From positions 16,692 to 80,691 of the forward strand of contig CAYMXW010000001.1 in assembly GCA_964394555.1 (NCBI GenBank): 64,000 nucleotides of DNA, given 5' to 3'. Below are positions 2,790 to 40,836 of the stretch, one piece after another. The notes beneath the pieces were generated by a model. That model was not told the DNA's origin, did not search any database, and saw only the letters and a program-made list of their open reading frames with translations. Numbering within the stretch: the first letter of the stretch is position 1; each line of letters opens with the position of its first letter. The stretch is from an uncultured Candidatus Saccharibacteria bacterium. Its GTDB lineage: Bacteria; Patescibacteriota; Saccharimonadia; Saccharimonadales; Saccharimonadaceae. Both the position numbers and the translations under genes were made by a program.

Positions 2790-5700
2790 ATGTTTAAATG
2801 TTTAAGGAAACATAAAGTTTTTGGTTTAGTGTCGGTAGTTTTTTTGGCGTCTGCCGTAGTTGTGTTTGGCGGTGAATTGGCAAGGACTATCGTGGGGGTA
2901 GTTGACCCGGCGGCTGAGAAGTCATGTTTTACTAAAGATATGGCATTTGCAGAAGATAGCCCGTTAACCAAAGAAGAACAGACGGTGTTTTCGCAAAATA
3001 ATATTGTGTTTTATGAGCCATGTACAGCAAGTAGTGATACTACGCTGAGTGGTGACATCAAAATATCTGGTACTACGGCAGAAGAAAAAGTGTGGTCAGG
3101 GTTAACAAGCTTTATGTCTAAAGAACAGGCGGCGGGGGTAATGGGCAATATGGTGGGTGAAAGTGGACTAGGGCCTACTCGACATCAAGGCTCTGGCAAT
3201 GGTTTTACTGGATCTATATGGGACAATGGCTCTGGCAAAGGTTTGGGCTTAATTCAATGGGATGGTGGTCGTAGACCGAAAATGGCTAATTATGTTAAAC
3301 AGCGAGATATGAGTTTAATAAATTATCTGGAAGATGGCTCAAATTACGGAGGTTTGTCAGGAGATCAGTTGATTGAAAAAGTTGGACATGAGATAGCGAA
3401 TAAGCTATACCAAGCAGAAATTGAGTTTTTAAAACAAGAACTTGATAAGAGCTATAAGGAGCTTTACGATCAGCAATCAGTGGACGATGCAACAAATTAT
3501 TTTGCTAAACATGTAGAACGCTGTGCTGACTGCGTAGATCCTGCAAAAATAAATGGCGACAACATGACGAATCGTCGCAAGAAGGCTAATGAGATATACA
3601 ATAGACAAAGCGGAAAGGGGTCTTATGTAAGTAATGGCGTAACGTCTTCGATATCTGGTGTGGCAAATAGTGATGTGACGTCGAGTGTACACGATAAGGC
3701 GTGGGAGTTGGCGGATCAGCCTGGGGGCGGTCAAGGCCCAACTGATGCTTATTTGAAAGCTCAACAAGAAGTAAAATGTCCTGATGACTGTGTGAATCAT
3801 GGTCAAAGCTGTGATCGTTATGTAGGGGTGACTTTGCGTGCTTCTGGCGTGGATTCAGAAGCGCCGCTAGAGGGACATGTTGGTAATTTTGAAGATCATA
3901 TTCTTGCGCATCCAGAAATTTATACTCCAGTGGAAGGTGATCCTTGGGATGAATCTACCTATCAGCCTGGTGATATACGAGTAAGATTAGATAAAAATAA
4001 AGGGCCAAATTATCGTGGGCACATTGAAATTTATGGTCAGCGCGAAGGCAAGGGCTATATATTGTCAGCGTCAAATGGTGACAGGTGGGCAGGTTATCAA
4101 ACTTTCTTTGCTGCAGACAAGAGCAAACATGACTATCACATTTACCGTACGCAGAGTACGCCGAAGTGTATTACTAACGATGGTGGGTGCGCGCAGAATA
4201 GTATGGACGTAGTGGGAACGGCGATATGCTTGGCGCATCCGCTAGGGACTAAAAATTCGGTGCGATCATTTGATGGTGGTGCACCGACGGATAATTTTAA
4301 GACAGCGATTGATGCTGTATTTCCTCTTGATAAAGGACGTAAAAAATGGAATGCTAGATCTAAGGCTGGCTCTTCATGTGATGTAGGAGCTGCTACGGTA
4401 GTTCGCTATTCGGGCGTAGATAAAAAATTTGGGCGTGGCCTTGACGAGCAACACAAGGTAAAGACCAACGATAAATGGGAATTAATAAAGCCAGCCAGCA
4501 GAAGTGATTTGCAGCCTGGCGATTTAGCATATTGGCAACACGGAAACAGTGGACATGTTTGGATTTATCTTGGCAAGATAGGTAAAAAGTTATATGGTGC
4601 GCACGCTCATTATAATGGTAGACAATATCTAGGCATCGAGGACAGCACGAATGAAGCAGTAGACTGGATTTTGCGACCGAAAAATGCTCAAAATACTACC
4701 CAAATTACTATGGAAATGTTAAAAAATGCTGGTAAAAATAGTGTGGTAAATGAGAGTAGTTCGTCCGGGAGTTCAAGTTCTGTTAAAATCGGTGACGCTC
4801 AGGGTAAAAAAGATATCAATGCGGCAGCAATTGAGTTGGCATGGCCAGCGGATGCGAGCAAATCATCGTCAAATTATCCTGGTGGCGATTGGAATGAAGC
4901 TGGTAAAAAAGCTGCAAGTGAATTTGTTAAGGAGACGGGTGCGCACCTATCTGATAGAGGCGCCGACTGTGGTGATTTTGCTAATGTAGTATTATGGTAT
5001 GCCGGTATAATTAAGGATAAAGAAGATATGGGTGGTCCAGCTAGCCTTTATAAATATATGAAGAAAGATACAGCAAATTGGGAAGAAGTCGAGATAAAGA
5101 GTAAATCAGATTTACAGCCTGGAGATATAGGCATAAGATTTAATTCACTAGACCTCTGTGCTCCATATAAGGGTGGTTGCCATCAGCATATTGCATTTTA
5201 TGTTGAGCAAAATGGTGAAGCTTATACTTCGCAAGCATCACATGGTGGTTTCTTTGGGCGTTTGAGTAAGGGAGTGAGTGATATATTTACCAAGGATCAT
5301 GTGATGAGATACAAAGGTGGCGCTTCTACTGACGATAATTGTGATCGGTGTGGAAATGGTGAAGGTGATGACGCAAATGGGACTGGGTTGAAGGAAGGTG
5401 GCATGACACTTGAGGAGGCTAGAGCTTGGATGGAGGCATATAAAAAAGAGGCATCCAAAAAGATACCCGGTGGTTTTCAGGCTGACCATGTTTTTCAGGG
5501 GGCCTTTATCAACTACACTACATCTAGAATTCATTGTAAGGATGGTGCGATGAATAATTGCGTAGGTTTTTCGCAATGGTTTTTAAATAGGTATACTAGT
5601 ATAAAGGGTGCTCCGAATTGGAAAAGTACAGCTCCCGGAAATGGAATGGTTAGCAGATTATCGGATTTTGGATTAAAAACTGGTAATGAACCACGGCCTT

Positions 5701-5951
5701 ATGCTATATTTAGCGAACACCCTGCTAATCATACTGGGGTGGTAATGGGCGTTAAGGGTGATAATGTAATAATTTGCGAAGCGGGATGTGGGCCTGGTTA
5801 TGTCAAGGGTTCTCCAGATACTGAGTGGCCTGGATGCAGATCGTGGTCTAAGGCAACTACTAAGTCTAAAGGTATGGACTATGCTTATACTGATAATATT
5901 TTGAAGGGGGTTGGTTCTGGTCAAGGTGGGGGTGGTGGAGATAGCTTTTAA
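2790..5951 (+). CDS. Large secreted/anchored multi-domain cell-wall hydrolase (phage-tail-lysozyme-like domain, three NlpC/P60-like Cys-His modules, C-terminal CHAP-like domain)
   Basis: N-terminal hydrophobic segment; AAGVMGNMVGES...GLGLIQW (lysozyme-like); three repeats of C...(SDL)QPGD...H; C-terminal NCVGFSQWF...NHTGVV...ICEAG. Confidence 0.75.
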   Translation: MFKCLRKHKVFGLVSVVFLASAVVVFGGELARTIVGVVDPAAEKSCFTKDMAFAEDSPLTKEEQTVFSQNNIVFYEPCTASSDTTLSGDIKISGTTAEEKVWSGLTSFMSKEQAAGVMGNMVGESGLGPTRHQGSGNGFTGSIWDNGSGKGLGLIQWDGGRRPKMANYVKQRDMSLINYLEDGSNYGGLSGDQLIEKVGHEIANKLYQAEIEFLKQELDKSYKELYDQQSVDDATNYFAKHVERCADCVDPAKINGDNMTNRRKKANEIYNRQSGKGSYVSNGVTSSISGVANSDVTSSVHDKAWELADQPGGGQGPTDAYLKAQQEVKCPDDCVNHGQSCDRYVGVTLRASGVDSEAPLEGHVGNFEDHILAHPEIYTPVEGDPWDESTYQPGDIRVRLDKNKGPNYRGHIEIYGQREGKGYILSASNGDRWAGYQTFFAADKSKHDYHIYRTQSTPKCITNDGGCAQNSMDVVGTAICLAHPLGTKNSVRSFDGGAPTDNFKTAIDAVFPLDKGRKKWNARSKAGSSCDVGAATVVRYSGVDKKFGRGLDEQHKVKTNDKWELIKPASRSDLQPGDLAYWQHGNSGHVWIYLGKIGKKLYGAHAHYNGRQYLGIEDSTNEAVDWILRPKNAQNTTQITMEMLKNAGKNSVVNESSSSGSSSSVKIGDAQGKKDINAAAIELAWPADASKSSSNYPGGDWNEAGKKAASEFVKETGAHLSDRGADCGDFANVVLWYAGIIKDKEDMGGPASLYKYMKKDTANWEEVEIKSKSDLQPGDIGIRFNSLDLCAPYKGGCHQHIAFYVEQNGEAYTSQASHGGFFGRLSKGVSDIFTKDHVMRYKGGASTDDNCDRCGNGEGDDANGTGLKEGGMTLEEARAWMEAYKKEASKKIPGGFQADHVFQGAFINYTTSRIHCKDGAMNNCVGFSQWFLNRYTSIKGAPNWKSTAPGNGMVSRLSDFGLKTGNEPRPYAIFSEHPANHTGVVMGVKGDNVIICEAGCGPGYVKGSPDTEWPGCRSWSKATTKSKGMDYAYTDNILKGVGSGQGGGGGDSF

Positions 5952-13638: not shown

Positions 13639-14757
13639 TTAGTTGAAATGAATATAGCGATAAGCGCTGGCGGGAACGCCACTACGACGTGAAAAGTCAC
13701 CATAGACATAGTTGTATTCGGAGAGGGTGATGGTGTCGCCATGGACGGCTTCAACCCACATGACATGGCCATAGATACCGGCGGTGGAGTAAGCGACGGT
13801 GCCGGGAGCGGGGTTGCTGTCAACGCGAAAACCATGGGCGGCGGCGCTGTTACCCCAGTTGCTGGCGTTGCCCCAAGCCGAGATGGAGTAGCCGTAAGTT
13901 TTGGCGACCATATAGCCGGCGTAACTGGTACACTGGCAGACATAGCCACCGGTGTAAATAAACGAAAGGTTGATGCCGGGGCATTTGGTACGATAGGGGT
14001 AATAATTGCCGTTGGCGTCAGCACCGGTGTTGGCAACGGCGCCGTAATTGTTAGAGGCGCGGATGGCTTTGTTAATTTCTTCGGCCTTAATCTTGCGGGC
14101 GGCTTCGGCATCGGCGCTGTAGGCGTCGGCGTTGTCCTTGTAATTAGCGATAAGAGTGCTTTGCTCATTGCGCTTGGCGGCGATTTCAGAACGCTTAGAG
14201 TTTTTATTAGTAATAATAGCGTCGTTGCTGGCCTTTTTCTGGGCGAGGTCTTCCTTGACGCGGCGAACTTCCTTGGCGGCAGCGACTACTTGTTCTTGAA
14301 CAGTTTCTTTGCGAGATTTGCGTTCGGTGAAATCGCCGAGATTGTCGCTACTGGCGAGGATGGTGATGGCGTCAGGGTCTTCGTTTAAGTGCATCTCAAC
14401 GGTGAGATCAACGAGGGCCTGTTGTTGTTTTTCAAGTTTGGCTTCGGTGGTTTTAATCTGGGTGGCGAGGTCCCTAGCGATGGCTTCATAAGAAGCGATT
14501 TCGGCCTCGACGGCGGCGATTTCAGCGTTTAAGGCGTCGACTTTGCCCTGTAAAGTATTGGCTTGGCTAGAAAGCTCATCGGCCTTAGCCTGAGCGGCAG
14601 CTTCGCGGTCGGCGGCGTCACGGCAAGTTTTGCTAGTACAATAGGGTGAGTAAGTGGTGGCATGGGCGGGTTTGGTAGTGTTTACAAACTGGAAAATAGG
14701 AACTGCTAGCAGAGCAGCAACTACGGGGTAAATTAAGTGTTTGTGTTGAAGTCTCAT
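13639..14757 (-). CDS. Secreted coiled-coil + CHAP peptidoglycan hydrolase (PcsB/CwlO-like FtsEX partner)
   Basis: Signal peptide, long coiled coil, CQCTSYA, WGNASNW, YGHVMWVE, SEYNY; directly downstream of ftsEX. Confidence 0.88.
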   Translation of the reverse strand: MRLQHKHLIYPVVAALLAVPIFQFVNTTKPAHATTYSPYCTSKTCRDAADREAAAQAKADELSSQANTLQGKVDALNAEIAAVEAEIASYEAIARDLATQIKTTEAKLEKQQQALVDLTVEMHLNEDPDAITILASSDNLGDFTERKSRKETVQEQVVAAAKEVRRVKEDLAQKKASNDAIITNKNSKRSEIAAKRNEQSTLIANYKDNADAYSADAEAARKIKAEEINKAIRASNNYGAVANTGADANGNYYPYRTKCPGINLSFIYTGGYVCQCTSYAGYMVAKTYGYSISAWGNASNWGNSAAAHGFRVDSNPAPGTVAYSTAGIYGHVMWVEAVHGDTITLSEYNYVYGDFSRRSGVPASAYRYIHFN

Positions 14758-27834: not shown

Positions 27835-28755
27835 TTATATCACATTGATAACGTAGAGGATGTAGAAAGCGATGCCGTTTTTGAGCATGTGGAGAAGAAT
27901 GCCGCTGTGGATGGTACCAGTGGCTTCGCGCAAGGCGCAAAGGACGAGACTGAGACAGAAAACATTGACACCGACATTCCATTGGAGGTGAAGTAAGCCA
28001 AAGAGGGCGGAGACGATGAATATCGACAGTACTAGTGATAGTGGGAAGTAGGCATAACTTATAAACGGCAGTCTAACTTTTTCAGGAATAAGAGCGCGGA
28101 GTTTGCCATAGAGCCAACCGCGAAAGATAATTTCTTCGGCCACTGGGGCGACCACAACGAGCGCAAAGAAGGCGGCGAGGCGGTCAAAACCGCTATATAG
28201 AGAGTTGAAGCCAACATCTTGGGCTTGACCGGCGTCAAACCAGGGGAAAATGGCGGAAAAAGCAAAAGTAAAGATGGCGGCGATAAGAAAATAGGCGATG
28301 AGGCCGACCGGTGCGAGACCGATGTCGAGCCAAGTAGGAAGACCATTTAGCCCAAGATTCTCACGGGTGACTTTTAAATCTTTAAATTTTTGAGAGATTT
28401 TGTGGGTTTTGAAAAATAGATAGGGTATGCCAACATTAAGGGCTACCATCAAAGCATAGACAATGAGGTCGTAGATGGCAAGGTTGAGTGGTTCTTGGAG
28501 CTGAGCGCTAGTGAAGCCAAAGACGCGGATGGCGAGAAAAGCGATGAAGTACTGCGAAAAGAGAAAACAAAAGCCAGTCCAAGCTAGCATTGCGATTATA
28601 ATGGAAAAAAGAAGTAAATGAGTTTTTGGCGGGCATCCGCAGTTACGACGTTCGCCCCTTGGGACGCGTGAGCGAAGCGAAGGACGCAGCGACGAGGCCC
28701 GTGACGACGGGCCCGAGGAGCGTCCGCCAGAAACTTCGTTTACTTCTTTTTTCAT
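27835..28755 (-). CDS. CPBP family intramembrane metalloprotease carrying a palindromic insertion near the N-terminus
   Basis: APVAEEIIFRG, FGLLH and HMLKN motifs; multiple TM segments. Confidence 0.88.
   Translation of the reverse strand: MKKEVNEVSGGRSSGPSSRASSLRPSLRSRVPRGERRNCGCPPKTHLLLFSIIIAMLAWTGFCFLFSQYFIAFLAIRVFGFTSAQLQEPLNLAIYDLIVYALMVALNVGIPYLFFKTHKISQKFKDLKVTRENLGLNGLPTWLDIGLAPVGLIAYFLIAAIFTFAFSAIFPWFDAGQAQDVGFNSLYSGFDRLAAFFALVVVAPVAEEIIFRGWLYGKLRALIPEKVRLPFISYAYFPLSLVLSIFIVSALFGLLHLQWNVGVNVFCLSLVLCALREATGTIHSGILLHMLKNGIAFYILYVINVI
28621..28735. repeat. Palindromic element copy 1 (within the CPBP reading frame)
   Basis: Terminal arms AGTTTTTGGCGG / CCGCCAGAAACT; core hairpin GGCCCGT-GACG-ACGGGCC at 28696-28713; GC-rich relative to its surroundings. 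Confidence 0.75.
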
Positions 28756-31960: not shown

Positions 31961-31987
31961 AAAAAAAGGCCCCCTTAAAAGGAGCCT
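31961..31987 (-). terminator. Intrinsic terminator after the 32004-33350 gene
   Basis: Minus strand AGGCTCC-TTTTAA-GGGGCCT followed by a T run. Confidence 0.7.
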
Positions 31988-32003
31988 GATTACGTTAGCA
32001 AGT

Positions 32004-33350
32004 TCAATCTGCTTCTAATTTCTTCAGATATTCTTCATCTGCGTCATGTTCTTTTAGTGCTCGGTAGATACCAAAACGTTCACCGCTGGTTGCTAACCGT
32101 TCATAATCTAAGTGCATCGCAATTGCATCTGCTGTCGTCACTTTGATTCCGGCGTCTAGCAATTCCAGCGCAATTCGCACGTGGGCGTCAGACCAGATTT
32201 CGTCCTCGTCTTCAAATCTTTTAGCATAACTTAGGTAAACCAAATCTGCTTCTATATCGGCACCATGCCAGGTTAAGGTTAGCATTCGCCTTAGACAGTC
32301 CATCGTGCCAATTTTATCTTGATGCTCACGGCAATAGGCGTAGAAACTCCGCCCCAGCGCTTTGATAATATCTTTTTGCTTAAAACGACGCAAAAACTCA
32401 TCAAAGTCTTCCGGATATCCTTGATGATATTCGAACAAGATTTCTCCCGGAAAATATTCCAGTAATTTGTCGAGCTTTAGCCTAAAATTATCAGCGTATT
32501 TTACTAAATCTTCATCGTTACGACAATCGAAGATGTCAAAAATCTTCAACATTAAGGTGTTACTGATCAGCCATTCGGGTGTGATTTTGACCCCAGCAAA
32601 CTCTTTACCAGAGCACTCTATGAAAGTTCTCTTATTAAGATGGTCACAACTACGTTTTACCAAGTACCTAACTTCGTCGTCGCCTATTAGTTCCTTGTCT
32701 CGCAAGAAAGCCAGATTTTCTTCGTATCTTGATCCCAATACTAAATCGCTTCTTGCTGCTCTATTTTTTAATATGTCCCATAACCGTTGCTCAAGCATCA
32801 TTTTGGCGTCAAAACCGATTTCATCCACTAGCCATTTAAGATTACGCCCAATTATGACGTAGTTAATTTCTTTAATCAAAAGCTCTTCGCTAGCACCAAG
32901 CTTCTTAAATATGACGATTTCTGTCAAATCGTGGGGTTCGGTATGATCAACAACTAGCCAATTAATATCAGCGCCAGTTGCTACCAGCTTGTATAGATTA
33001 TTATGAGTTACATTATTTGTTTCAAAATATTCTCTACACACTGCCGTTGATGGATGATTTACGGCTTCATAAAGTAGCGTTTTTAAGTCAATTTCTGCTC
33101 CATATGATACCAGCTCAGAATGCCATTTAATAATATCATTATAGGTCATCATAGTTGCTACTTTGTTAGGATTTACACCGGCTTTCAAAAAATCCAAACA
33201 GTATACAGCTAAGATTTTTTGAACTTGCCGTCGCTCATAGTCGTCGCTATTGATAAAAAATATCTCCAAATATTCAAAAAACTCCGCATAATTATCCTTG
33301 ACTTTCATAAACTCTGCCAACATTTGTTTTAATTTTTCCGAAATAGACAT
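32004..33350 (-). CDS. Hypothetical helical-repeat protein (ankyrin-like motifs)
   Basis: ATG at 33350 with a GGAGGTGA SD. Recurring L..G(A/V)(D/E/N)I-like motifs: KAGVNPN, SYGAEID, ATGADIN, WHGADIE, DAGIKVT. Confidence 0.55.
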   Translation of the reverse strand: MSISEKLKQMLAEFMKVKDNYAEFFEYLEIFFINSDDYERRQVQKILAVYCLDFLKAGVNPNKVATMMTYNDIIKWHSELVSYGAEIDLKTLLYEAVNHPSTAVCREYFETNNVTHNNLYKLVATGADINWLVVDHTEPHDLTEIVIFKKLGASEELLIKEINYVIIGRNLKWLVDEIGFDAKMMLEQRLWDILKNRAARSDLVLGSRYEENLAFLRDKELIGDDEVRYLVKRSCDHLNKRTFIECSGKEFAGVKITPEWLISNTLMLKIFDIFDCRNDEDLVKYADNFRLKLDKLLEYFPGEILFEYHQGYPEDFDEFLRRFKQKDIIKALGRSFYAYCREHQDKIGTMDCLRRMLTLTWHGADIEADLVYLSYAKRFEDEDEIWSDAHVRIALELLDAGIKVTTADAIAMHLDYERLATSGERFGIYRALKEHDADEEYLKKLEAD

Positions 33351-33469
33351 TCTATCACCTCCGTCAAAACTAGAACTCACTAACGTTAAAGAACGAGAAT
33401 ACCCCCCAATCCTTTCTGTAATTATAACATAAAATCTCCTATTTGAAAACCCCATGTTATAATAGATTT

Positions 33470-36400
33470 ATGAAACTAAACCAAGCTCAGCGTGCAGCGG
33501 TAGAATACTTAGATGGCCCTCTGCTTGTCCTGGCTGGTCCTGGTACCGGCAAAACCCAACTCCTTAGTAGCAAGGTAGCTTATATCTTAGAGCACACCGA
33601 TACTAATCCCGAGAATATCCTCTGTATCACCTTTACCGAGAGTGGCACTGCTAACATGCGCGAACGCTTAAAGAGTATCATTAAAAAATCTGCCAATAAA
33701 ATTCATATTAGCACCTATCATCAATTTGGTACCGACATTCTTTTTGAATATCAGCAATACAGCACCGAGCTTACTCGCAAGCTCGACGATGTCATCAGCG
33801 AAGTCAGCGCCTACAAAATCATCAAAGATATCCTCAAAGACCTTCCGCCTCGCGATATTCTCAAAAACGATAATATAAAAGACATTATTAGCACCATCAG
33901 CGAAGCTAAGTCCGCTCGTCTTACTAGCGACGACCTTGCTAAAATCTCCGAACATAATGAAGCTGAAAGCGCGTCTTTAAACGCCGAAATCGCCCCTGTT
34001 CTAGCCCTTACCACCGGCAAAACCCTCAAATTCGACACCGCCCTAAACGAAGTCTACCAACCCCTTGGCGAAATCCTCGCCAAGCACACTACTAATAAAC
34101 CCATCACCAAGCATATTGAGCCTCTCACCAACCATCTCGCCCGCACCCTTAATGAAGCGATCGCTACCGAACTCGCTAAGGACAAGCCGTCTATGAAATC
34201 CCTCACCAATTGGCGTAATGCTAATTTTGAGCTTGACCGACAACATAATTGGCGTCTCAAAAATATAGTCGCCAACAAAAAGCTCATCAGCCTTGCCAAT
34301 GTTATGAGTCAATATCAGGCCCACCTCGAAAAAAATGGCCTTTATGATTTCGATGATATGATTGAACTCGCTATTCAGGCATTAAAAAACGACCGCGGCT
34401 TTCGCCTTACTCTTAGCGAAAAGTATCAATACATCCTACTCGACGAATTTCAGGACACCAACCCGGCTCAATTTGAACTAATCAAACTTCTCACCGACTA
34501 CGAAAAGCCCAACATCATGGCAGTCGGCGATGACGATCAAGCAATTTTCGCTTTTCAGGGCGCTAATGTTTCTAATCTCTTTGATTTTAAAGAACATTAT
34601 GAGGCCAAAACCGTCGTCCTCACCGAGAACTATCGTAGCACGCAGGATATTCTCGACCTCTCCCGTAATATTGCTAATCAATTGGATGAGAGTTTTGCAA
34701 AAAATCACCAAATCACGAAAAATTTGTTGGCCAAAAACCCAGCTACACCAAACACCATTGAACGTCACAGTTTTCCCGAAGCTAATACTGAATACGCCTG
34801 GGTCGCTGAACAGATTCAAGCGCTTATTAGCCAAGGCGAGAATCCTGCAGATATTGCCGTTATTGCCCCTAAGCATAAATATATTACTCCACTTTTGCCG
34901 CATTTTAAGATTCATAATCTCCCCATTGCTTACGAGAAAAAAGATAATATTTTTGACGATCTTGCCATTCGACAATTAATCAAACTCGCTCGTTTTGTTT
35001 ACAAACTTGCTCAAAACGAGCCAACTTCTCATCTTGCCCTCGAAGTTCTATCTTTTCCGTTTTGGGAGATAGATCCTTTAACTGCTATCAAAATTACTCA
35101 CAAAGCTCACATCGACAAGCGTCCCATCCTTGAGGCTCTAGCACATTCCGACGATCCCGCCATCATCAAAATCCGTGATTTTATTACTGGACTCATAACT
35201 CAAGCTTATGATGCTCCGCTTGAACTTTTTCTTGACTATCTCATCGGTACTGCCGCAATGCCAAATTACAATCCCTCGCCATTTCTTAGCTACTACCAAA
35301 ATCACCAGACCGACTACGATATTTATCAACTTTACAATTACTTACACGTCCTTCGCGATGCTTGCATCAAGCATACTAAGCCGCTTACTTCGCCTCGCCT
35401 TAAAGAGTTTATTAGCTTTGTCGATGATTACGAGGAAGCTAAATACCAACTTATTAATACCAGCCCTTACCAGACTGCCAGTCAAGCCGTTCAACTCATG
35501 TCTGCACACAAAGCCAAGGGGCTTGAATTTAAATATGTTTTTCTAATTGCCGTGGATGATCGTGCCTGGGGTAACTCCAAGGGTAATAATAATATGCTCT
35601 CTCTACCGAAAAATCTCATCCAAATTCGTCATACTGGTGCTACTGATGACGAGTGTATTCGTCTCTTCTTCGTCGCTATCACTCGCGCCAAATCGCACCT
35701 TTATCTCACCAATTCTGATGCTGACTTCTCTGCTAAGTCCGCCGACTCACTCGAATATCTAAATGAGCACGATAATCTCTCACCATTTTTACCAGTTAAC
35801 AACCAAACTATTATCAGGCATGATCAAAATTCGGATCAACTTTTGCAAACTCTCCACACCGGCTGGGTAGCTGCCTATCAAAAACTCGATACTAACCTCA
35901 AAGATTTGCTAATCAAATCGCTTGATAATTATCGTCTCACCGCTACCGATCTCACCACCTTTATTGATCTCAGATACGCCGGCCCGCAAACTTTTTACCA
36001 AAATTGCGTGCTTAGAGCGCCGAAGGAGCCCATGAGTAACAACATCATTCTTGGAAACCTCATTCATAGTGTTTTTGAACGTGTTACAAAAGAGAAAATT
36101 GACGATTCAGAAGCGCTTGAATATTTTAGAGAGCGCCTAGACGAGCAGCCACTCACCGCTACAGACCGCGCTGAAATACTCGAAAATGGCACCCATGCGC
36201 TCGAAATTTCTCTAAAAGAGTTCGGCGTTTTGCTACGCGCTTCCACCGCTATGTCAGAAGTCGATTTTCGCACTCATCATATTCAGGCCGACAATGTCCC
36301 TATTACTGGCAAAATTGACCACATGCAAATTGACAAACCTCACAAGGTCATAAGCATTTACGATTTCAAGACTGGCAATCACCACGCACCAGGCAAACGC

Positions 36401-36751
36401 GCCGGTTGGCAAAGTAATCTCTCTCTCTTCAAATATTCTCTCCAGCTTGAATTTTATAAACTCTTGCTCAAAAATTCACCCGAATACCAAAATTATCAAA
36501 TCGACGAAGGACACATTCTCTTTATCAACCCCAGCAAAGAGGACGACGCGGTTTATGACGAAACTTACACCTTTACTGATGATTCCGCTAAAGAATTTCT
36601 TGAACTTGCCAAGGCGGTCTATCATCAAATTAAAACTCTTGATTTTGTCAATGATCCAGAATTCAATCTCCCCACAGATGACGACGCCACGCTCAAAGAT
36701 GTCAAAAATTTCATCGCGCTCTTGCTTGCAAAATCTGCTCAGTTATCGTAA
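33470..36751 (+). CDS. UvrD/PcrA-family helicase fused to a C-terminal PD-(D/E)xK nuclease (AddA/AdnB-like)
   Basis: LAGPGTGKT, LLDEFQDTN, VGDDDQAIF, NYRS, SAHKAKGLEF and FFVAITRAK; C-terminal GKIDH...IYDFKTG...QLEFY. Confidence 0.92.
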   Translation: MKLNQAQRAAVEYLDGPLLVLAGPGTGKTQLLSSKVAYILEHTDTNPENILCITFTESGTANMRERLKSIIKKSANKIHISTYHQFGTDILFEYQQYSTELTRKLDDVISEVSAYKIIKDILKDLPPRDILKNDNIKDIISTISEAKSARLTSDDLAKISEHNEAESASLNAEIAPVLALTTGKTLKFDTALNEVYQPLGEILAKHTTNKPITKHIEPLTNHLARTLNEAIATELAKDKPSMKSLTNWRNANFELDRQHNWRLKNIVANKKLISLANVMSQYQAHLEKNGLYDFDDMIELAIQALKNDRGFRLTLSEKYQYILLDEFQDTNPAQFELIKLLTDYEKPNIMAVGDDDQAIFAFQGANVSNLFDFKEHYEAKTVVLTENYRSTQDILDLSRNIANQLDESFAKNHQITKNLLAKNPATPNTIERHSFPEANTEYAWVAEQIQALISQGENPADIAVIAPKHKYITPLLPHFKIHNLPIAYEKKDNIFDDLAIRQLIKLARFVYKLAQNEPTSHLALEVLSFPFWEIDPLTAIKITHKAHIDKRPILEALAHSDDPAIIKIRDFITGLITQAYDAPLELFLDYLIGTAAMPNYNPSPFLSYYQNHQTDYDIYQLYNYLHVLRDACIKHTKPLTSPRLKEFISFVDDYEEAKYQLINTSPYQTASQAVQLMSAHKAKGLEFKYVFLIAVDDRAWGNSKGNNNMLSLPKNLIQIRHTGATDDECIRLFFVAITRAKSHLYLTNSDADFSAKSADSLEYLNEHDNLSPFLPVNNQTIIRHDQNSDQLLQTLHTGWVAAYQKLDTNLKDLLIKSLDNYRLTATDLTTFIDLRYAGPQTFYQNCVLRAPKEPMSNNIILGNLIHSVFERVTKEKIDDSEALEYFRERLDEQPLTATDRAEILENGTHALEISLKEFGVLLRASTAMSEVDFRTHHIQADNVPITGKIDHMQIDKPHKVISIYDFKTGNHHAPGKRAGWQSNLSLFKYSLQLEFYKLLLKNSPEYQNYQIDEGHILFINPSKEDDAVYDETYTFTDDSAKEFLELAKAVYHQIKTLDFVNDPEFNLPTDDDATLKDVKNFIALLLAKSAQLS

Positions 36752-36841
36752 AATAGCAAAGCTAGCACTAACCAGTGTTAAAATTGCATGATGAATACGT
36801 CCGCTATTGTCGTATTAGTTCTTTGAAAGGAGGTGAGATGG

Positions 36842-37021
36842 TTGACTTACACTTGCAAATATTGTGGTCAAATCCACTTGACCGAAAGAGATATGCACGA
36901 CTGCCCCTGCCGGAAGCGCAAAAGCACTTGTCCGCGCTGTAACGGCACCGGTGTTATCGCTGGCGGATTTCTGTCCCCCAATATCGAATGCCCACGCTGT
37001 CAAGGCACCGGCAAAGTCTAA
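36842..37021 (+). CDS. Small Cys-rich zinc-finger protein (two DnaJ-type CxxCxGxG repeats)
   Basis: TTG start 5 nt after AGGAGGTGA; CKYC, HDCPC, CPRCNGTG and CPRCQGTG. Confidence 0.7.
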   Translation: MTYTCKYCGQIHLTERDMHDCPCRKRKSTCPRCNGTGVIAGGFLSPNIECPRCQGTGKV

Positions 37022-37036
37022 GCCATCACTCCAAAA

Positions 37037-37161
37037 AGCAATCTAAACTACAAATTTGCGAAATCATAAAGGAAGTTCTCACGAGAACTTCCAAGTGAGC
37101 ATCGCCCGTAACGACGGGCCGATGCGAACGAGATTGAGAAAATTTCGTAGTTTAGGTTGCT
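37037..37161. repeat. Palindromic element copy 2 (intergenic, three-way junction)
   Basis: ~28-bp imperfect outer arms enclose a perfect 10-bp hairpin (37071-37092) and the family core hairpin GCATCGCCCGT-AACG-ACGGGCCGATGC (37099-37125). Confidence 0.8.
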
Positions 37162-37501
37162 ATTTTTCAGCTTCGGATTCCTTAGCCGCCTTCTTTGCTG
37201 CTTCCTTAGCAGCTTTGGCGGCTTTATTGCTTAGTGCCGCCTTGCGCTCGGCCGCTTTCGCGGCGCGTGCCTTAAAGCGATCTACGCGACCCTCGGTATC
37301 GATAATCTTCTCTTCACCAGTGAAGAACGGGTGTGATGCCGAAGAAATCTGAATTTTTACCAACGGATATTCTTTGCCGTCTGTCCACTTAATAGTCTCC
37401 TCGCTTTTGGCGGTGGACTTCGTCAAAAACGAAAACTTTGCCGCTTCGTCAGAAAATACGACATAGTTATAATCTTTAGGGTGTAACTCTTTATTGCTCA
37501 T
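37160..37501 (-). CDS. rpmE: 50S ribosomal protein L31 (type B, Cys-free) with an Ala/Lys-rich tail
   Basis: KELHPKDY, ISSASHPFFTG and IDTEGRVDRF. Confidence 0.95.
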   Translation of the reverse strand: MSNKELHPKDYNYVVFSDEAAKFSFLTKSTAKSEETIKWTDGKEYPLVKIQISSASHPFFTGEEKIIDTEGRVDRFKARAAKAAERKAALSNKAAKAAKEAAKKAAKESEAEK

Positions 37502-37566
37502 AATTCCTGCTATTATATCAAACTTCCTCAGATTTGACAACTGCGACTTTGAGATTTTGCCTGAAG

Positions 37567-38835
37567 CTAAGTGGCAGTTTTACGTTGTAGCACAATTAGG
37601 TTCTCGATGTGGGGAGTGCGGGGGAAGAAATTGAAGGGCTGGAGATGAGTAATTTGGTATTTTTGCTGGAGAATCTGGACATCGCGAGCTTGAGTGGCGG
37701 GGTTGCAAGAGAGGTAAATGATAGTAGGCGGGTGCTCGGCTAGGAGTTTGTCTAGAAGTTTGGCGTGGCAACCGGCGCGAGGGGGATCGAGAATTACGGT
37801 GGTGTCGTTTTCGATAAAATCAAGTGCGTCTTCAGATTTACTAAGAAATGTTGAAATGTTACTCTTGGGGACGCGTCCGGTCGGCCCGTCGCCACGGGCG
37901 ACCGGCGCTGCTTCTCGCGCTGCCGCGCTCCGAACGCCCCCAAGAGCAGCATTTCCAACATTTCTAACCAGTTCCGAATAGGCGGATTTGTCGACTTCGA
38001 CGAGAGTTAAAGTGCGGTCGCGAGCAACTGAGAGACCAATGGTGCCGACGCCAGCGTAAAGATCAAGTACTTTATTAGTAGTAATATGGCGTTTAATTTC
38101 GGTAAGGGCCATTTCGTAAACTGGTAGGTTGATTTGGAAAAAGCCGTTGGGTGAATAGGAATATTCGTAGCCGAGAATAGTGTCGGTGAGGGGTGTAAAA
38201 GTAGGGTGGGGCTGACCGTTTTCGTAGAGGCCGCCGCTGACAGTTCCCTGCTGGTTGCAACGCAGGAGCAGAGATTGAAAGCGACGCGCTTCGGCATGCT
38301 CGGCATTAAGCTGGTCGACGATTTCAGTAGCCTTTTTGAAAATCTCGGGGCGTTCTAGGCTAGACTGAGTAATCGGGATTTTGTAATGGGAGCCGCGTTG
38401 ATGAAAGGCAAGGCTGATTTTGCTCGTCTCGTTATCCCAATAAAGCGCATATTCCATTTTATTGCGATAATGAAAATCTTTATTATCAGTTACAGGAAGT
38501 CTTTCAAACATGTCTGTTTGAAAGACTTCTTTGACCAACAAAGACTTTTGTTCTAGTTCATAATCGTAATCCATAATTTGCCAAGGCGAGGTGGAGAGGT
38601 AGCAAGCGTCACGAGGTTCGACGCGGTGCAAAGAGTGGTCAGCGGTTTTGGCAGCGATGGCTTCGATGTAGTGGGTTTTAATTTTGGTGGGTTTGAATTC
38701 GATGACGGTTTCGCCTGGCAGAGCGTTCCAAAACATGGCTTTTTTACCATCGGAAAGTGTGCCGATTCCCTGTCCACCAGGAATCAAGCTAGTAATCTTG
38801 ACTTTTTCGGAAGATATGTTCTGATATTTATTCAT
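37567..38835 (-). CDS. RlmD/TrmA-family RNA m5U methyltransferase with an in-frame palindromic insertion
   Basis: TRAM-like N-terminus, YRNKME, FFQIN, LDLYAGVG, LDPPRAG, YLSCNP and FFPRTPHIE. Confidence 0.92.
   Translation of the reverse strand: MNKYQNISSEKVKITSLIPGGQGIGTLSDGKKAMFWNALPGETVIEFKPTKIKTHYIEAIAAKTADHSLHRVEPRDACYLSTSPWQIMDYDYELEQKSLLVKEVFQTDMFERLPVTDNKDFHYRNKMEYALYWDNETSKISLAFHQRGSHYKIPITQSSLERPEIFKKATEIVDQLNAEHAEARRFQSLLLRCNQQGTVSGGLYENGQPHPTFTPLTDTILGYEYSYSPNGFFQINLPVYEMALTEIKRHITTNKVLDLYAGVGTIGLSVARDRTLTLVEVDKSAYSELVRNVGNAALGGVRSAAAREAAPVARGDGPTGRVPKSNISTFLSKSEDALDFIENDTTVILDPPRAGCHAKLLDKLLAEHPPTIIYLSCNPATQARDVQILQQKYQITHLQPFNFFPRTPHIENLIVLQRKTAT
37844..37965. repeat. Palindromic element copy 3 (inside the methyltransferase reading frame)
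   Basis: ~27-bp arms AGAAATGTTGAAATGTTACTCTTGGGG / CCCCAAGAGCAGCATTTCCAACATTTCT; core CCGGTCGGCCCGT-CGCC-ACGGGCGACCGG at 37877-37905. Confidence 0.8.
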
Positions 38836-40135
38836 AACGAAGGGCATCAATGGGGTTTTTGCGAGCGGCTTTGATGGCTGGTAAAGTGCCAGATATAAAA
38901 GCGACGAGCATAATAATTACGGTAATGATAATTACATTAAGTGGCGTAAATTCGGCAAGCGAGAAGGTGGGAAAATCGGCGAGGAAAGTTTGGTGGGCGA
39001 TGCCGTTACCGGCAAATCCAGCCAGCATTGAGATAGCGATACCGAAGACCGAACCCCAGAACCCGAGCAAGGTGGCTTCAAGCGAAAATAGGAGAAAGAT
39101 TTTGCCACCCCCCATACCGAGTGCCTTCATGAGGCCGATTTCGCGGGTGCGTTCTTGGACGGACATAAACAAAGTGTTGATGATGCCAATGGAAGCGGCG
39201 AGCAAGGCAATGGCGCCAAATAGAGTAAAGACAATGAGCACGACGTCAAGGAAAGTGCGAATCATACCGACAGTGTCGTCGATAGTCATGATAGAAAAGC
39301 CGAGTTTTTCAAATTCGTCGCGAATTTGGTCGAGTTTGTCGGGATCGACATTGCCGACAGCGATGATGTTGGCTTGGGCTTTGGTTTCGGCGGGAACGCC
39401 TTCCATCGATTTATCGTAAATGGCGTTGTCGAGAGCAGAATTAATATGAAGTTCGCCACTCATTGCGAGGATGCCGGGAGCTTGAACGCCGGTGATGGTA
39501 GCTTTGACAGTAGCGATACAGTTGTCAGGCTGAGTGTAACAAAGCGCGGTCTGCTTGAAGCCGATAGTGACGGTTTGATTGATAGCATCTTCGGCGCTCG
39601 CGAAACCAAGCGGTTCTAGATAATCTTCGGTGAGAAGAATTTCGTATTTGTCAGAACTAGAGTCGGGCATACGGCCAGTAGTGAGGTCAACATTGAAATT
39701 TTCGGTAGGTAGATATTCAAGCGAAACGTTATATTTTTGGTCGGTATCGTTACTAGTAATCCATTCGGGCGAAAGGATGTGAAAAATTTCCAGATCCTCG
39801 ACGCCTTTGACAGCTTTGAGTTTTTTGAGATCGTCAGCAGTAATGCGTGAAGAAGAGGCGGCACCAGTGTCGGGATTATATTCGGTGGCTGCAGTACCGC
39901 TTTGCATGGCGGAATTGATTTGCTCGTACATGGCGGCGGGAAAAACTTCCACAAAACCATCACCACCGATAGAGGCGACTTGTTTATCGATGAACGAATT
40001 GACGCCGGTATTGATAGCGGTGTTTAAAACAATGGTAAAACTGCCGATAAAAATCGCGAGGATGGTAAGAAAAGTGCGAATTTTGTTTTGGAAAAGGTTG
40101 TGATTGGCGGTTTTGATAATATCAATAAGTTTCAT
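38828..40135 (-). CDS. MacB/FtsX-family ABC permease
   Basis: RTFLTILAIFIG, large periplasmic domain, and GIINTLFMSVQERTREIGLMKALG. Confidence 0.9.
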   Translation of the reverse strand: MKLIDIIKTANHNLFQNKIRTFLTILAIFIGSFTIVLNTAINTGVNSFIDKQVASIGGDGFVEVFPAAMYEQINSAMQSGTAATEYNPDTGAASSSRITADDLKKLKAVKGVEDLEIFHILSPEWITSNDTDQKYNVSLEYLPTENFNVDLTTGRMPDSSSDKYEILLTEDYLEPLGFASAEDAINQTVTIGFKQTALCYTQPDNCIATVKATITGVQAPGILAMSGELHINSALDNAIYDKSMEGVPAETKAQANIIAVGNVDPDKLDQIRDEFEKLGFSIMTIDDTVGMIRTFLDVVLIVFTLFGAIALLAASIGIINTLFMSVQERTREIGLMKALGMGGGKIFLLFSLEATLLGFWGSVFGIAISMLAGFAGNGIAHQTFLADFPTFSLAEFTPLNVIIITVIIMLVAFISGTLPAIKAARKNPIDALRYE

Positions 40136-40818
40136 TTGGCAACCTCCTTGGTGATTTTACCATCTTTCAAGTGAATTTGACGCTGACATTTACTAGCAAG
40201 CTCTAGGTCGTGAGTGACGATAATAAGAGTAACATTTTTCTGCTTGTTGAGGTCAAAAAGGAGTTTGATGATTTTGTCACCGGTGACTGAGTCAAGGTTA
40301 CCAGTGGGTTCGTCGGCAAAGATAATTTTGGGATTATTAACGATGGCGCGAGCGATACAAACACGTTGTTTTTGACCGCCTGAAAGGTCGTTAGCTTTGT
40401 TTGAAGCTTTGTCGTCAAGCCCGACGGTTTTTAGAGCGTCGAGGGCGAGTTTTTTGCGGGTGCGACGACGCGTACCGGAAATTTTGAGCGGCAAAAGCAC
40501 GTTGTTTAATACGGTATCGTTAGCGTTCATAAAAAATTGCTGAAACACAAAACCGAACTCGCGGTTGCGCAAGCGATTGAGTTGGCGGGGTTTTAATTTA
40601 TGACTATTGATATCGTTGATTTTAATAGTGCCGGTGGTGGGTTGGTCGAGTAAAGCAAGCAAGTGCATTAAAGTAGATTTGCCCGAACCGGATTTGCCAA
40701 CGATGGCGATGGTCTCGCCGACGTTGATGGTGAGATTGATATCTTTGAGCGCCCGAAAGGCGGTAGATTTTTTGCCATAAGTCTTGGACAGATGGCTAAC
40801 TTCAATTAGCGGTTTCAT
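40132..40818 (-). CDS. ABC transporter ATP-binding subunit (MacB/LolD type)
   Basis: GKSGSGKST, LSGGQKQRV and [10 protein letters not shown]. Confidence 0.93.
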   Translation of the reverse strand: MKPLIEVSHLSKTYGKKSTAFRALKDINLTINVGETIAIVGKSGSGKSTLMHLLALLDQPTTGTIKINDINSHKLKPRQLNRLRNREFGFVFQQFFMNANDTVLNNVLLPLKISGTRRRTRKKLALDALKTVGLDDKASNKANDLSGGQKQRVCIARAIVNNPKIIFADEPTGNLDSVTGDKIIKLLFDLNKQKNVTLIIVTHDLELASKCQRQIHLKDGKITKEVAK

Positions 40819-40836
40819 ACTGTATATTATAACACA

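Follow-up and report, generated by a model that had tools for sequence, protein, structure and literature searches.

Introduction

Rickettsia palindromic elements (RPEs), numbered RPE-1 to RPE-10 (Ogata et al., 2000, 2002), are described in a later summary (PMC10969869) as palindromic repeats of ~100–150 bp with no known transposase. Here, we describe a palindromic element in a 64,000-nucleotide stretch of DNA (the window, to which all positions refer) from an uncultured Candidatus Saccharibacteria bacterium, where it lies in frame within the gene of an RlmD/TrmA-like RNA methyltransferase. We consider it likely, with a probability of roughly 0.78, that this element is a non-autonomous, structure-defined, and selfish mobile palindromic DNA that is RPE-like in its behavior yet is not an RPE. 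The family to which it belongs is named here Saccharibacteria palindromic elements and was apparently undescribed before; full-text literature searches returned no paper linking Saccharibacteria or the Candidate Phyla Radiation (CPR) to MITEs, the miniature inverted-repeat transposable elements, or to palindromic elements.

The Saccharibacteria family resembles RPEs in size (median span of 115 nt), in being carried by host-dependent bacteria with reduced genomes, and in its placement in frame within unrelated housekeeping genes, at positions compatible with the protein fold and with the same site occupied in orthologs of several species. However, in PMC10969869, RPEs are presented as coding a conserved peptide and as ~40% genic, whereas the Saccharibacteria family is read in all six frames and is ~75% genic among the matches listed. 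It further differs in having an internal conserved three-way junction, locus-specific arms, and modules that nest in hairpin loops. The Saccharibacteria belong to another phylum, which makes homology with RPEs unlikely; the two families are set apart here by description rather than by sequence comparison. A first-pass annotation of this locus had likened the palindrome to RPEs, and this likeness stands for an in-frame palindromic repeat family with RPE-like behavior but not for a conserved peptide.

Fungal mitochondrial GC clusters, double-hairpin elements, and ‘byp’ elements are GC-rich mobile hairpins of AT-rich, compact genomes that invade coding sequence and nest within one another. These are organellar, however, and byps are skipped by the ribosome such that their frame is dispensable, whereas the Saccharibacteria family always keeps the frame. 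Quasipalindrome template-switch or snap-back synthesis, reportedly formulated as the Ripley model and studied in Escherichia coli by the Lovett laboratory, explains how the neighbor of a hairpin can become its own reverse complement, as in the arm of a copy in the valyl-tRNA synthetase (ValRS) gene described below. It is nevertheless a mutational process and not a mobile element, and alone it leaves the arrival of the core at new loci unexplained.

Repetitive extragenic palindromes (REPs) and the bacterial interspersed mosaic elements (BIMEs) built from them, together with their RAYT enzymes, and palindromes derived from IS200/IS605 resemble the family in being defined by hairpins, lacking target-site duplications, and being thought to act as folded single-stranded DNA. 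REPs, however, are 20–40 nt long, extragenic, and clustered, and carry a conserved 5' tetranucleotide, whereas the Saccharibacteria copies are mostly genic. IS200/IS605 elements insert beside a fixed 4–5 nt target, whereas no flanking motif stands out in the Saccharibacteria family, and the missing target duplication is the only feature that IS200/IS605 derivatives are seen to have in common with it. ERIC, Correia, and BOX elements are likewise small and occasionally lie in frame within a gene, but most of their copies are intergenic, their termini are defined or they have a TA duplication (Correia), and their sequences show no relation to that of the family.

The Palindromic Insert in the RlmD Gene

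The host gene is an open reading frame (ORF) that matches Pfam PF05958 (tRNA_U5-meth_tr; E = 2.4e-18), and the solved structures nearest to its product are 2jjq, 5xj1, and 1uwv. Sequence alignments to solved RumA-type enzymes are interrupted exactly at the insert, which is held in the linker between helix alpha-B and strand beta-3, after the second Rossmann-fold strand. The features of this locus are listed below, with the evidence for each in parentheses.

37567..38850, minus strand: host gene, RlmD/TrmA-like class I S-adenosylmethionine-dependent RNA (uracil-C5) methyltransferase (ORF of 427 aa; Pfam)
37826..37983, minus strand: whole palindrome, 158 nt, with an AT-rich outer stem and a GC-rich center (fold energy, inverted repeats)
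37867..37959, minus strand: extra DNA relative to empty-site relatives, 93 nt or 31 codons, VGNAALGG...TGRVP (codon-by-codon comparison with loci L201, protein P0002, and L203, protein P0003)
37867..37941, minus strand: conserved family core, a 75-nt three-way junction closed by stem P1 (37867-37873 : 37935-37941) (covariance model, covariation)
37873..37908, minus strand: P3, a long hairpin with the invariant core CCCGU-NNNN-ACGGG at 37884-37897 (pattern search, covariation)
37917..37928, minus strand: P2, a short, variable side hairpin that defines subfamilies, GCGC-GGCA-GCGC in the sense direction (alignments)
37942..37959, minus strand: 5' outer arm in the gene sense, missing from empty alleles (linkers of relatives)
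37843..37866, minus strand: 3' outer arm in the gene sense, coding KSNISTFL (likeness to the original host linker, xSNxxx[V/F]L)

The first-pass annotation had proposed a palindrome with inverted arms and a core hairpin at 37844-37965, and such a palindrome is present as described. The single-strand fold of 37826-37983 has an energy of -85.9 kcal/mol, compared with -53.3 +/- 4.1 kcal/mol in shuffled sequences (z = -7.98), and its outermost pairs overlap codons of the host gene. The inner inverted arms (37853-37873 / 37935-37955) are 21 nt long and 86% complementary, and a weaker outer pair (37826-37856 / 37953-37983) extends over 31 nt at 71%. The core hairpin, GGCCCGTCGCCACGGGC, occupies 37883-37899. 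A search for the pattern GGCCCGTNNNNACGGGC, with one mismatch permitted, marks three loci, at 28696, 37103, and 37883; by chance 0.05 matches would be expected in the window, and the observed count was reached in 0 of 100 shuffles. The highest G+C content of any 60 nt in the window lies within 37849-37960 (0.82, versus a mean of 0.45).

The insert codes in frame for VGNAALGGVRSAAAREAAPVARGDGPTGRVPKS, flanked by ELVRN and NISTF, as had been reported from the initial reading of the sequence. The ~25 extra residues given there were too few: 93 nt (31 codons) were measured, for a net gain of ~29 aa over the nearest empty-site relatives. In an AlphaFold2 model of the host protein (63 homologs; mean predicted local distance difference test score [pLDDT] of 89.8), pLDDT falls below 50 in one segment only, residues 304-327, which follows helix 287-301 and precedes strand 331-335. 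The insert is therefore predicted, for the one site modeled, to form a disordered loop rich in Arg, Gly, Ala, Pro, Ser, and Glu in a surface linker.

A Conserved Three-Way Junction

When inserts were used as queries, nhmmer recovered 36 places, including other genes and intergenic DNA. Seventeen copies align on a common plan that runs from P1 through (U)CCGGAG, P2, GAG...AGCG, P3, and GAC(G/C)CG to the second strand of P1. The conserved unit is thus a GC-rich three-way junction of ~75–85 nt, comprising the closing stem P1, P2, and P3 (CCCGT-NNNN-ACGGG), and in each copy it forms the tip of a longer, AT-rich, locus-specific palindrome (~90–130 nt overall). Variants of P2 include GCCU-GGCA-AGGC, GGC-UGCU-GCC, and GGU-UACG-ACC.

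The RNAalifold consensus comprises 22 pairs, 13 of which show double compensatory changes. Paired cells make up 96.5% of the alignment at these positions, versus 76% in shuffles and 33–46% in controls in which the partners were slid, and the covariation score of 0.514 (0.149 in shuffles) was equaled by 0 of 500 shuffles. Of the 14 pairs in the P3 helix, 9 carry compensatory changes, and the paired share of its cells is 97.5%. G-U pairs account for just 6 of 372 cells, so few that both strands fold equally well.

A covariance model (R1) built on this fold matches the RlmD insert at 37861-37947 (79.7 bits, E = 1.8e-19) and gives 41 matches in 1.4 Mb of related genomes, while an unfiltered search of the window returned exactly three loci. 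Rfam 15 has no family that reaches its gathering score on the element, and the gathering-score matches in the window are two tRNAs; in a permissive search, the best sub-threshold match on the element was CRISPR-DR29 (15 bits, E = 1.4). A tRNA-like or group II domain V core was also considered and rejected by eye, given that the AGC triad is not conserved and that Rfam gave two true tRNAs only.

Distribution Among Genes and Reading Frames

A metagenome scan with one exact pattern, which represents a single sub-pattern of the family, matched at least 120 loci. To the covariance-model matches it adds at least 118 matches in low-GC contigs (0.39–0.55); among the matches listed, a further seven, in contigs with > 0.67 G+C, are chance matches. 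The counts of placement that follow likewise refer to the matches listed. Of the 118 copies, 89 (75%) fall within an open frame that is 150 aa or longer, a share close to that expected from coding density. The remaining 29 lie in intergenic DNA whose neighboring genes diverge, converge, or run in tandem, and do not mark split genes. The genic copies comprise 43 in sense and 46 in antisense orientation, and all six frames are used (sense 26, 11, and 6; antisense 17, 9, and 20). The use of both orientations and of six frames shows that the DNA is conserved and that the peptide is incidental. Those genic copies that persist keep the frame and contain no stop codon.

The host proteins of dispersed copies, named by eye from conserved motifs, include RlmD (also at a second site), ValRS (two sites), LepA, TatD, TrmD, Der, and a UvrD-like helicase, and an identical site is often filled in different genomes in either orientation. 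The existence of further copies had been anticipated from the three loci first seen, but the picture is larger than was then proposed, with many housekeeping genes struck and recurrent hot spots. The family pattern had 0 matches in 2.9 million viral contigs, and thus no carriage by phage was seen.

These distributions bear on whether the conserved fold is a functional structured RNA embedded in messages, for example a hairpin that is regulatory or pauses translation, a site for RNase III, or the gene of a small RNA. Such an RNA would be suited by the very stable fold and by the strong covariation of its three helices, as would the nearly exclusive sense orientation of the copies recognized at RlmD site A. 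Nonetheless, the even division of genic copies between sense and antisense, the near absence of G-U pairs with two strands that are equally stable and conserved, the lack of a matching family in Rfam, the presence of intergenic copies in every class of gene orientation, and the decay of copies in place (L027 and L057) make this very improbable.

One subfamily, with P2 = GGGCGGCAGCCC and the peptide SEGGSPREKRDRPVATGAGD, is distinct and very homogeneous, its copies being 94–97% identical. It was found in contigs of 0.51–0.55 G+C (L094, L095, L103, L105, L134, L144, L147, L152, L170, and L199), and in L170 two copies lie in opposite orientation within one 441-aa ORF. The subfamily has the appearance of a recent burst in a different lineage.

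Filled, Empty, and Decayed Sites at RlmD

The proteins nearest to the host protein are all from Candidatus Saccharibacteria. RlmD loci were compiled from 80 species representatives, which are mostly Candidatus Nanosyncoccus or Saccharibacteria metagenome-assembled genomes and come mainly from the guts of ruminants and other animals, and the linker was measured from the invariant Asn296 to the SKSE motif in 81 sequences. The linker is 24–51 nt in 49 of these and 72–240 nt in the other 32. All 81 linkers, including all 32 long ones, are a multiple of three in length, share one frame, and contain no stops. Orthologs were retrieved by peptide patterns that flank the site on both sides, and the linker sample is therefore not biased toward intact frames.

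An alignment of orthologs had been suggested as a means of finding the empty site, and this was found as a 10-aa linker in the two closest relatives (N/CQASNAYAVL/SKSE in L201 and N/CKNTTASPVL/AKSE in L203). Comparison with the allele in the window (N/VGNAALGG...TGRVP/KSNISTFL/SKSE) identifies the 93 nt at 37867-37959 as extra. Equally long linkers in orthologs that lack the palindrome had been named beforehand as the outcome that would speak against an insertion; such orthologs instead have short linkers of 8–17 aa (mostly 8–11). Filled and empty sites are interspersed on a neighbor-joining tree of the hosts (p-distances, ~65% identity), which is too crude for counts of gain and loss. When examined for a hairpin that would predate the insertion, the empty linkers gave only weak and inconsistent folds.

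The peptides of the inserts at this site contain PVTTG, (A/P)RNDG (also xRNDG), or PWRRAG, which are one hairpin, GCCCGTNNCGACGGGC, read in three frames. Compensatory variants of this hairpin at the site include CCCGT/ACGGG, CCTGT/ACAGG, and CCCGC/GCGGG, and at RlmD site A, cores from four P2 subfamilies are framed by the same outer arms, AATATTACCATTGAGGAC.

A lineage-specific loop with a function at the level of the protein, for example contact with RNA through Arg and Gly, would make the DNA hairpin a by-product. Most of the 120 closest proteins carry the insert, and its Arg-rich composition could allow it to contact RNA. This explanation is nevertheless extremely improbable given that one site is read in three frames to give unrelated peptides, that this DNA recurs in the genes of unrelated proteins as well as in intergenic positions, that a long insert is lacking in 49 of the 81 species representatives (linker ≤ 51 nt), and that the segment is predicted to be disordered.

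The frame data also address the notion that the insert is an intervening sequence removed or skipped before its peptide is made, be it a small intron, a segment excised by an RNase and a ligase, or a bypassed segment like the mitochondrial byps. A GC-rich hairpin in an AT-rich gene does recall mitochondrial GC clusters and byps. However, removal would free the frame, yet every long RlmD insert (32 of 32) and every linker (81 of 81) is in frame and free of stops. Loops that would give a stop in one of the frames (TAAC and TGAC) do not occur where that frame is read, PWRRA is found only with GGCG loops, and decayed copies remain as ordinary coding sequence. We regard removal or skipping as scarcely credible and infer from the intact frame of all 32 long inserts that the insert is translated as an extra loop.

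A further RlmD allele (L067:10001-11257, site A) has a 162-nt AT-rich tandem triplication that codes (K)NISLNRLLPAESDK about three times and has no hairpin core.

Ends, Arms, and Target Sites

Copies at different sites are homologous over a median of 74 nt, a stretch that ends ~43 nt before and ~20 nt after the core hairpin. Past this shared homology, the flanks are locus-specific yet mutually reverse complementary, and it is with these flanks that the whole palindrome reaches its median span of 115 nt. A target duplication was looked for at the palindrome ends, as the first-pass annotation had advised, and none was detected: in 101 copies the ends had no direct repeat (0 nt), while 35 copies had one of 1 nt, 10 one of 2 nt, two one of 3 nt, and two one of 4 nt, a distribution equal to that given by chance. 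No flanking target motif stands out either, with the commonest 4-mer, GTGA, in 5 of 150 copies, for ends that are blurred by the arms and genomes that are incomplete. An automated placement of gaps in 49 filled and empty pairs was discarded, as the gaps were scattered at 75–80% flank identity, and comparisons anchored on the protein were used instead.

The absence of a target-site duplication weighs against a classical MITE, i.e., a deletion derivative of an insertion sequence with a DDE transposase that is mobilized in trans through its terminal inverted repeats. The copies are small, palindromic, dispersed, and without coding of their own, as MITEs are, and IS3-family fragments (rve_3, HTH) lie 1.5 kb from RlmD in the relative L201. 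On the other hand, the outer repeats change from locus to locus and conservation lies in the interior, no transposase is recognized by Pfam in the window, and L201 has only the IS3 fragments. Such an origin is very unlikely.

The clearest view of the arms is provided by ValRS site 1. Five empty alleles read WDIAY-TYDGG-EIIVSTTRPETLF or near variants of this, and the filled allele of L008 reads WDIAY-Q-VVETISS-(core)-PR-EIIVSTTRPETLF. The right arm in L008 consists of the conserved host codons for EIIVSTT, and the left arm, GTAGTAGAAACTATTAGTTC, is their reverse complement at 17 of 20 positions, which indicates that, at least at this site, the host flank has been duplicated in inverted form as one arm. 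The empty ValRS alleles have, by eye, a short stem whose center is a few bases off the axis of insertion. The copy in the window fits the ValRS pattern with a likeness that is only moderate. By analogy with the ValRS case, its 5' arm (37942..37959) was probably copied in inverted orientation from the downstream linker, and its 3' arm (KSNISTFL) would derive from the original linker, to judge from a moderate likeness, by eye, to the linker of L201. In both of these cases, the arm attributed to the host is the one on the P3 side.

Movement and Turnover

Copies are dispersed both within and between genomes, and the similarity of elements does not track that of their hosts (Spearman 0.11). For example, the elements of L078 (in ValRS) and L032 (in RlmD) are 92% identical, and the RlmD proteins of the two hosts are 68% identical. 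Two copies in L071 are 94% identical and ~5 kb apart in one genome, and copies in L152, L170, and L199 are 96–97% identical at different sites. The window copy at 28623-28733 and the RlmD insert of L041, which are ~91% identical, likewise occupy different genes.

Several stages of turnover were identified. Modules are nested in the P3 loop in L001 and L015, and in P2 in L041, L011, and the window copy at 28623-28733. Decayed, AT-rich copies with a frame that is still open occur at RlmD (L027, L056, and L060) and at ValRS (L057), and arms-only alleles, in which the core has been lost, occur at RlmD (L025 and L029) and at LepA (L177). The nesting, the decay, and the arms-only alleles together suggest that the structure is conserved among copies that spread and is not maintained in place. 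Conservation among spreading copies is what is predicted for a selfish element.

The RlmD orthologs P0099 and P0114 carry a second type of nested module in the P3 loop, which codes DH(R/Q)R(N/S)RAK(N/E)(E/K)L...(T/I)(G/D)GR(R/L)(L/Q)S. It interrupts the core hairpin between PV(A/I)(T) and TG and is unlike the CGCCCCTTGGGACGCG module found elsewhere.

Proposed Mechanism

If the family is selfish mobile DNA, its mobility would act on folded single-stranded or cruciform DNA and not on RNA, given the near-exclusive Watson-Crick pairing and the lack of strand bias, and insertion would proceed without a staggered cut, given the lack of a target duplication. The outer arms may arise when the strong hairpin prompts snap-back or template-switch synthesis, by which the neighboring host flank would be copied in inverted form. 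Alternatively, the core may prefer the loops of pre-existing hairpins, a preference that is favored by the nesting. Genic copies would survive only in tolerant loops, and only where frame and stops permit. Copies then drift toward the base composition of the host, lose the core with the arms kept, or receive a further module inside a hairpin loop.

A more far-reaching version of this mechanism is possible but doubtful, namely that these are self-propagating palindromes of an undescribed kind. Here, the three-way-junction hairpin would spread within Saccharibacteria, and across species via natural competence, without a dedicated transposase, through template-switch copying at replication forks. 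The outer stem would be made by snap-back of the host flank, and preferential re-entry into hairpin loops would lead to nesting and to a steady supply of disordered loops to the core proteome.

Several observations weigh against the interpretation of the family as selfish mobile DNA, or against parts of it. No mobilizing enzyme was identified in the window or in the genome fragments scanned: a RAYT/TnpA or IS200/IS605 HUH transposase had been suggested as a flanking partner, but a Pfam search of 56 ORFs (≥ 70 aa) in the window identified housekeeping genes and no transposase, and a crude scan for the HUH...Y..Q (HUH-Y1) motif in 4,890 ORFs from 2.1 Mb of genome fragments, a weak negative, identified none among the loci. 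The snap-back origin of the arms is based on one clean case (ValRS in L008) and one moderate case (the window). L078, L032, and L005 share arms across three different sites, which implies that arms can also travel with the core, and in L065 both arms appear to be imported. The recurrent sites could represent a few ancient insertions followed by replacement or inversion of the core, as opposed to repeated insertion. The number of copies per genome is low, with ~12 beyond the selected RlmD site in 1.3 Mb of genome material, which consists of fragments and not of whole genomes. Finally, translation of the insert is deduced from the preservation of the frame.

Other Copies and Neighboring Genes in the Window

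One further member of the family and one marginal relative were detected in the window:

28623..28733, plus strand: second copy of the family, its P2 carrying a nested module (nhmmer, covariance model; fold z = -6.5)
37055..37141, plus strand: weak or partial relative consisting of a pair of hairpins, of which the second has the P3 core CGCCCGTAACGACGGGCCG (covariance model)

The first of these, noted from the outset as a copy at 28621, proved to be a true family member with a nested module inside. It scores 28.1 bits (E = 1e-4) in a filtered covariance search, and in an unfiltered search only its P3 core (28693-28717) scores; its nhmmer E-value of 8.6e-34 is a self-match. Its closest relative is the RlmD insert of L041, which is ~91% identical over 110 nt. 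The copy sits at the extreme 5' end of a CPBP/Rce1-like protease gene (27835-28755, minus strand) and would be either an N-terminal extension of the protease or a 5' leader. The annotated start of the protease falls in the left arm of the element, and orthologs begin at approximately residue 47–53. This later start in orthologs makes the element a possible source of the annotated one: it may have brought in a start codon that is new, together with an N-terminal extension of 46 aa, or else the true start may lie downstream.

The second, originally listed as a copy at 37037, is detectable by the covariance model, but only as a weak and partial relative (24.3 bits; E = 0.0016 over all sequence searched and 7e-5 for the window alone). 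It is intergenic, between the convergent genes of a small Cys-rich, zinc-ribbon-like ORF (no Pfam match) and L31, and its hairpins are kept in L201. It may double as a bidirectional terminator besides being a degenerate copy of the element.

Identity to L201 is 90–95% in the block 31962-37524 (a 483-aa ORF, a UvrD/AddA-like helicase-nuclease, the small Cys-rich ORF, and L31) and only 79–82% in the adjoining 37584-40834 (RlmD and ABC/FtsX genes). The block is also rearranged relative to L201, where IS3-family fragments lie at the junction. Together, these features suggest recent recombination or transfer between lineages. Elsewhere in the window, a 1053-aa protein with a phage-tail-lysozyme domain (PF18013) is encoded at 2790-5951 (plus strand) and a CHAP-domain protein at 13639-14757 (minus strand), beside FtsE/FtsX. 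Both are candidate cell-wall hydrolases that are possibly relevant to an epibiotic lifestyle.

Implications for Saccharibacteria

The elements account for many of the odd insertions rich in Arg, Gly, Pro, and Ala, and for many of the length differences, in Saccharibacteria proteins. Annotators and users of structure prediction should be warned that such loops originate from a DNA element and have no function of their own at the level of the protein. The elements could be used as fast-evolving markers for strain typing and, given the absence of target duplications and the presence of inverted arms derived from the host, they offer a tractable system for the movement of hairpin DNA and the growth of palindromes. 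The series of fresh, decayed, and arms-only alleles at one site provides a snapshot of selfish DNA as it turns into ordinary protein sequence.

Collectively, the family represents a second, independent case of in-frame, protein-coding palindromes, which were previously seen as a peculiarity of Rickettsia, and does so on a larger scale and in the CPR/Patescibacteria. That about three quarters of the listed copies are genic and that hot spots recur suggests that reduced, AT-rich, host-dependent genomes are generally open to selfish DNA of this kind.

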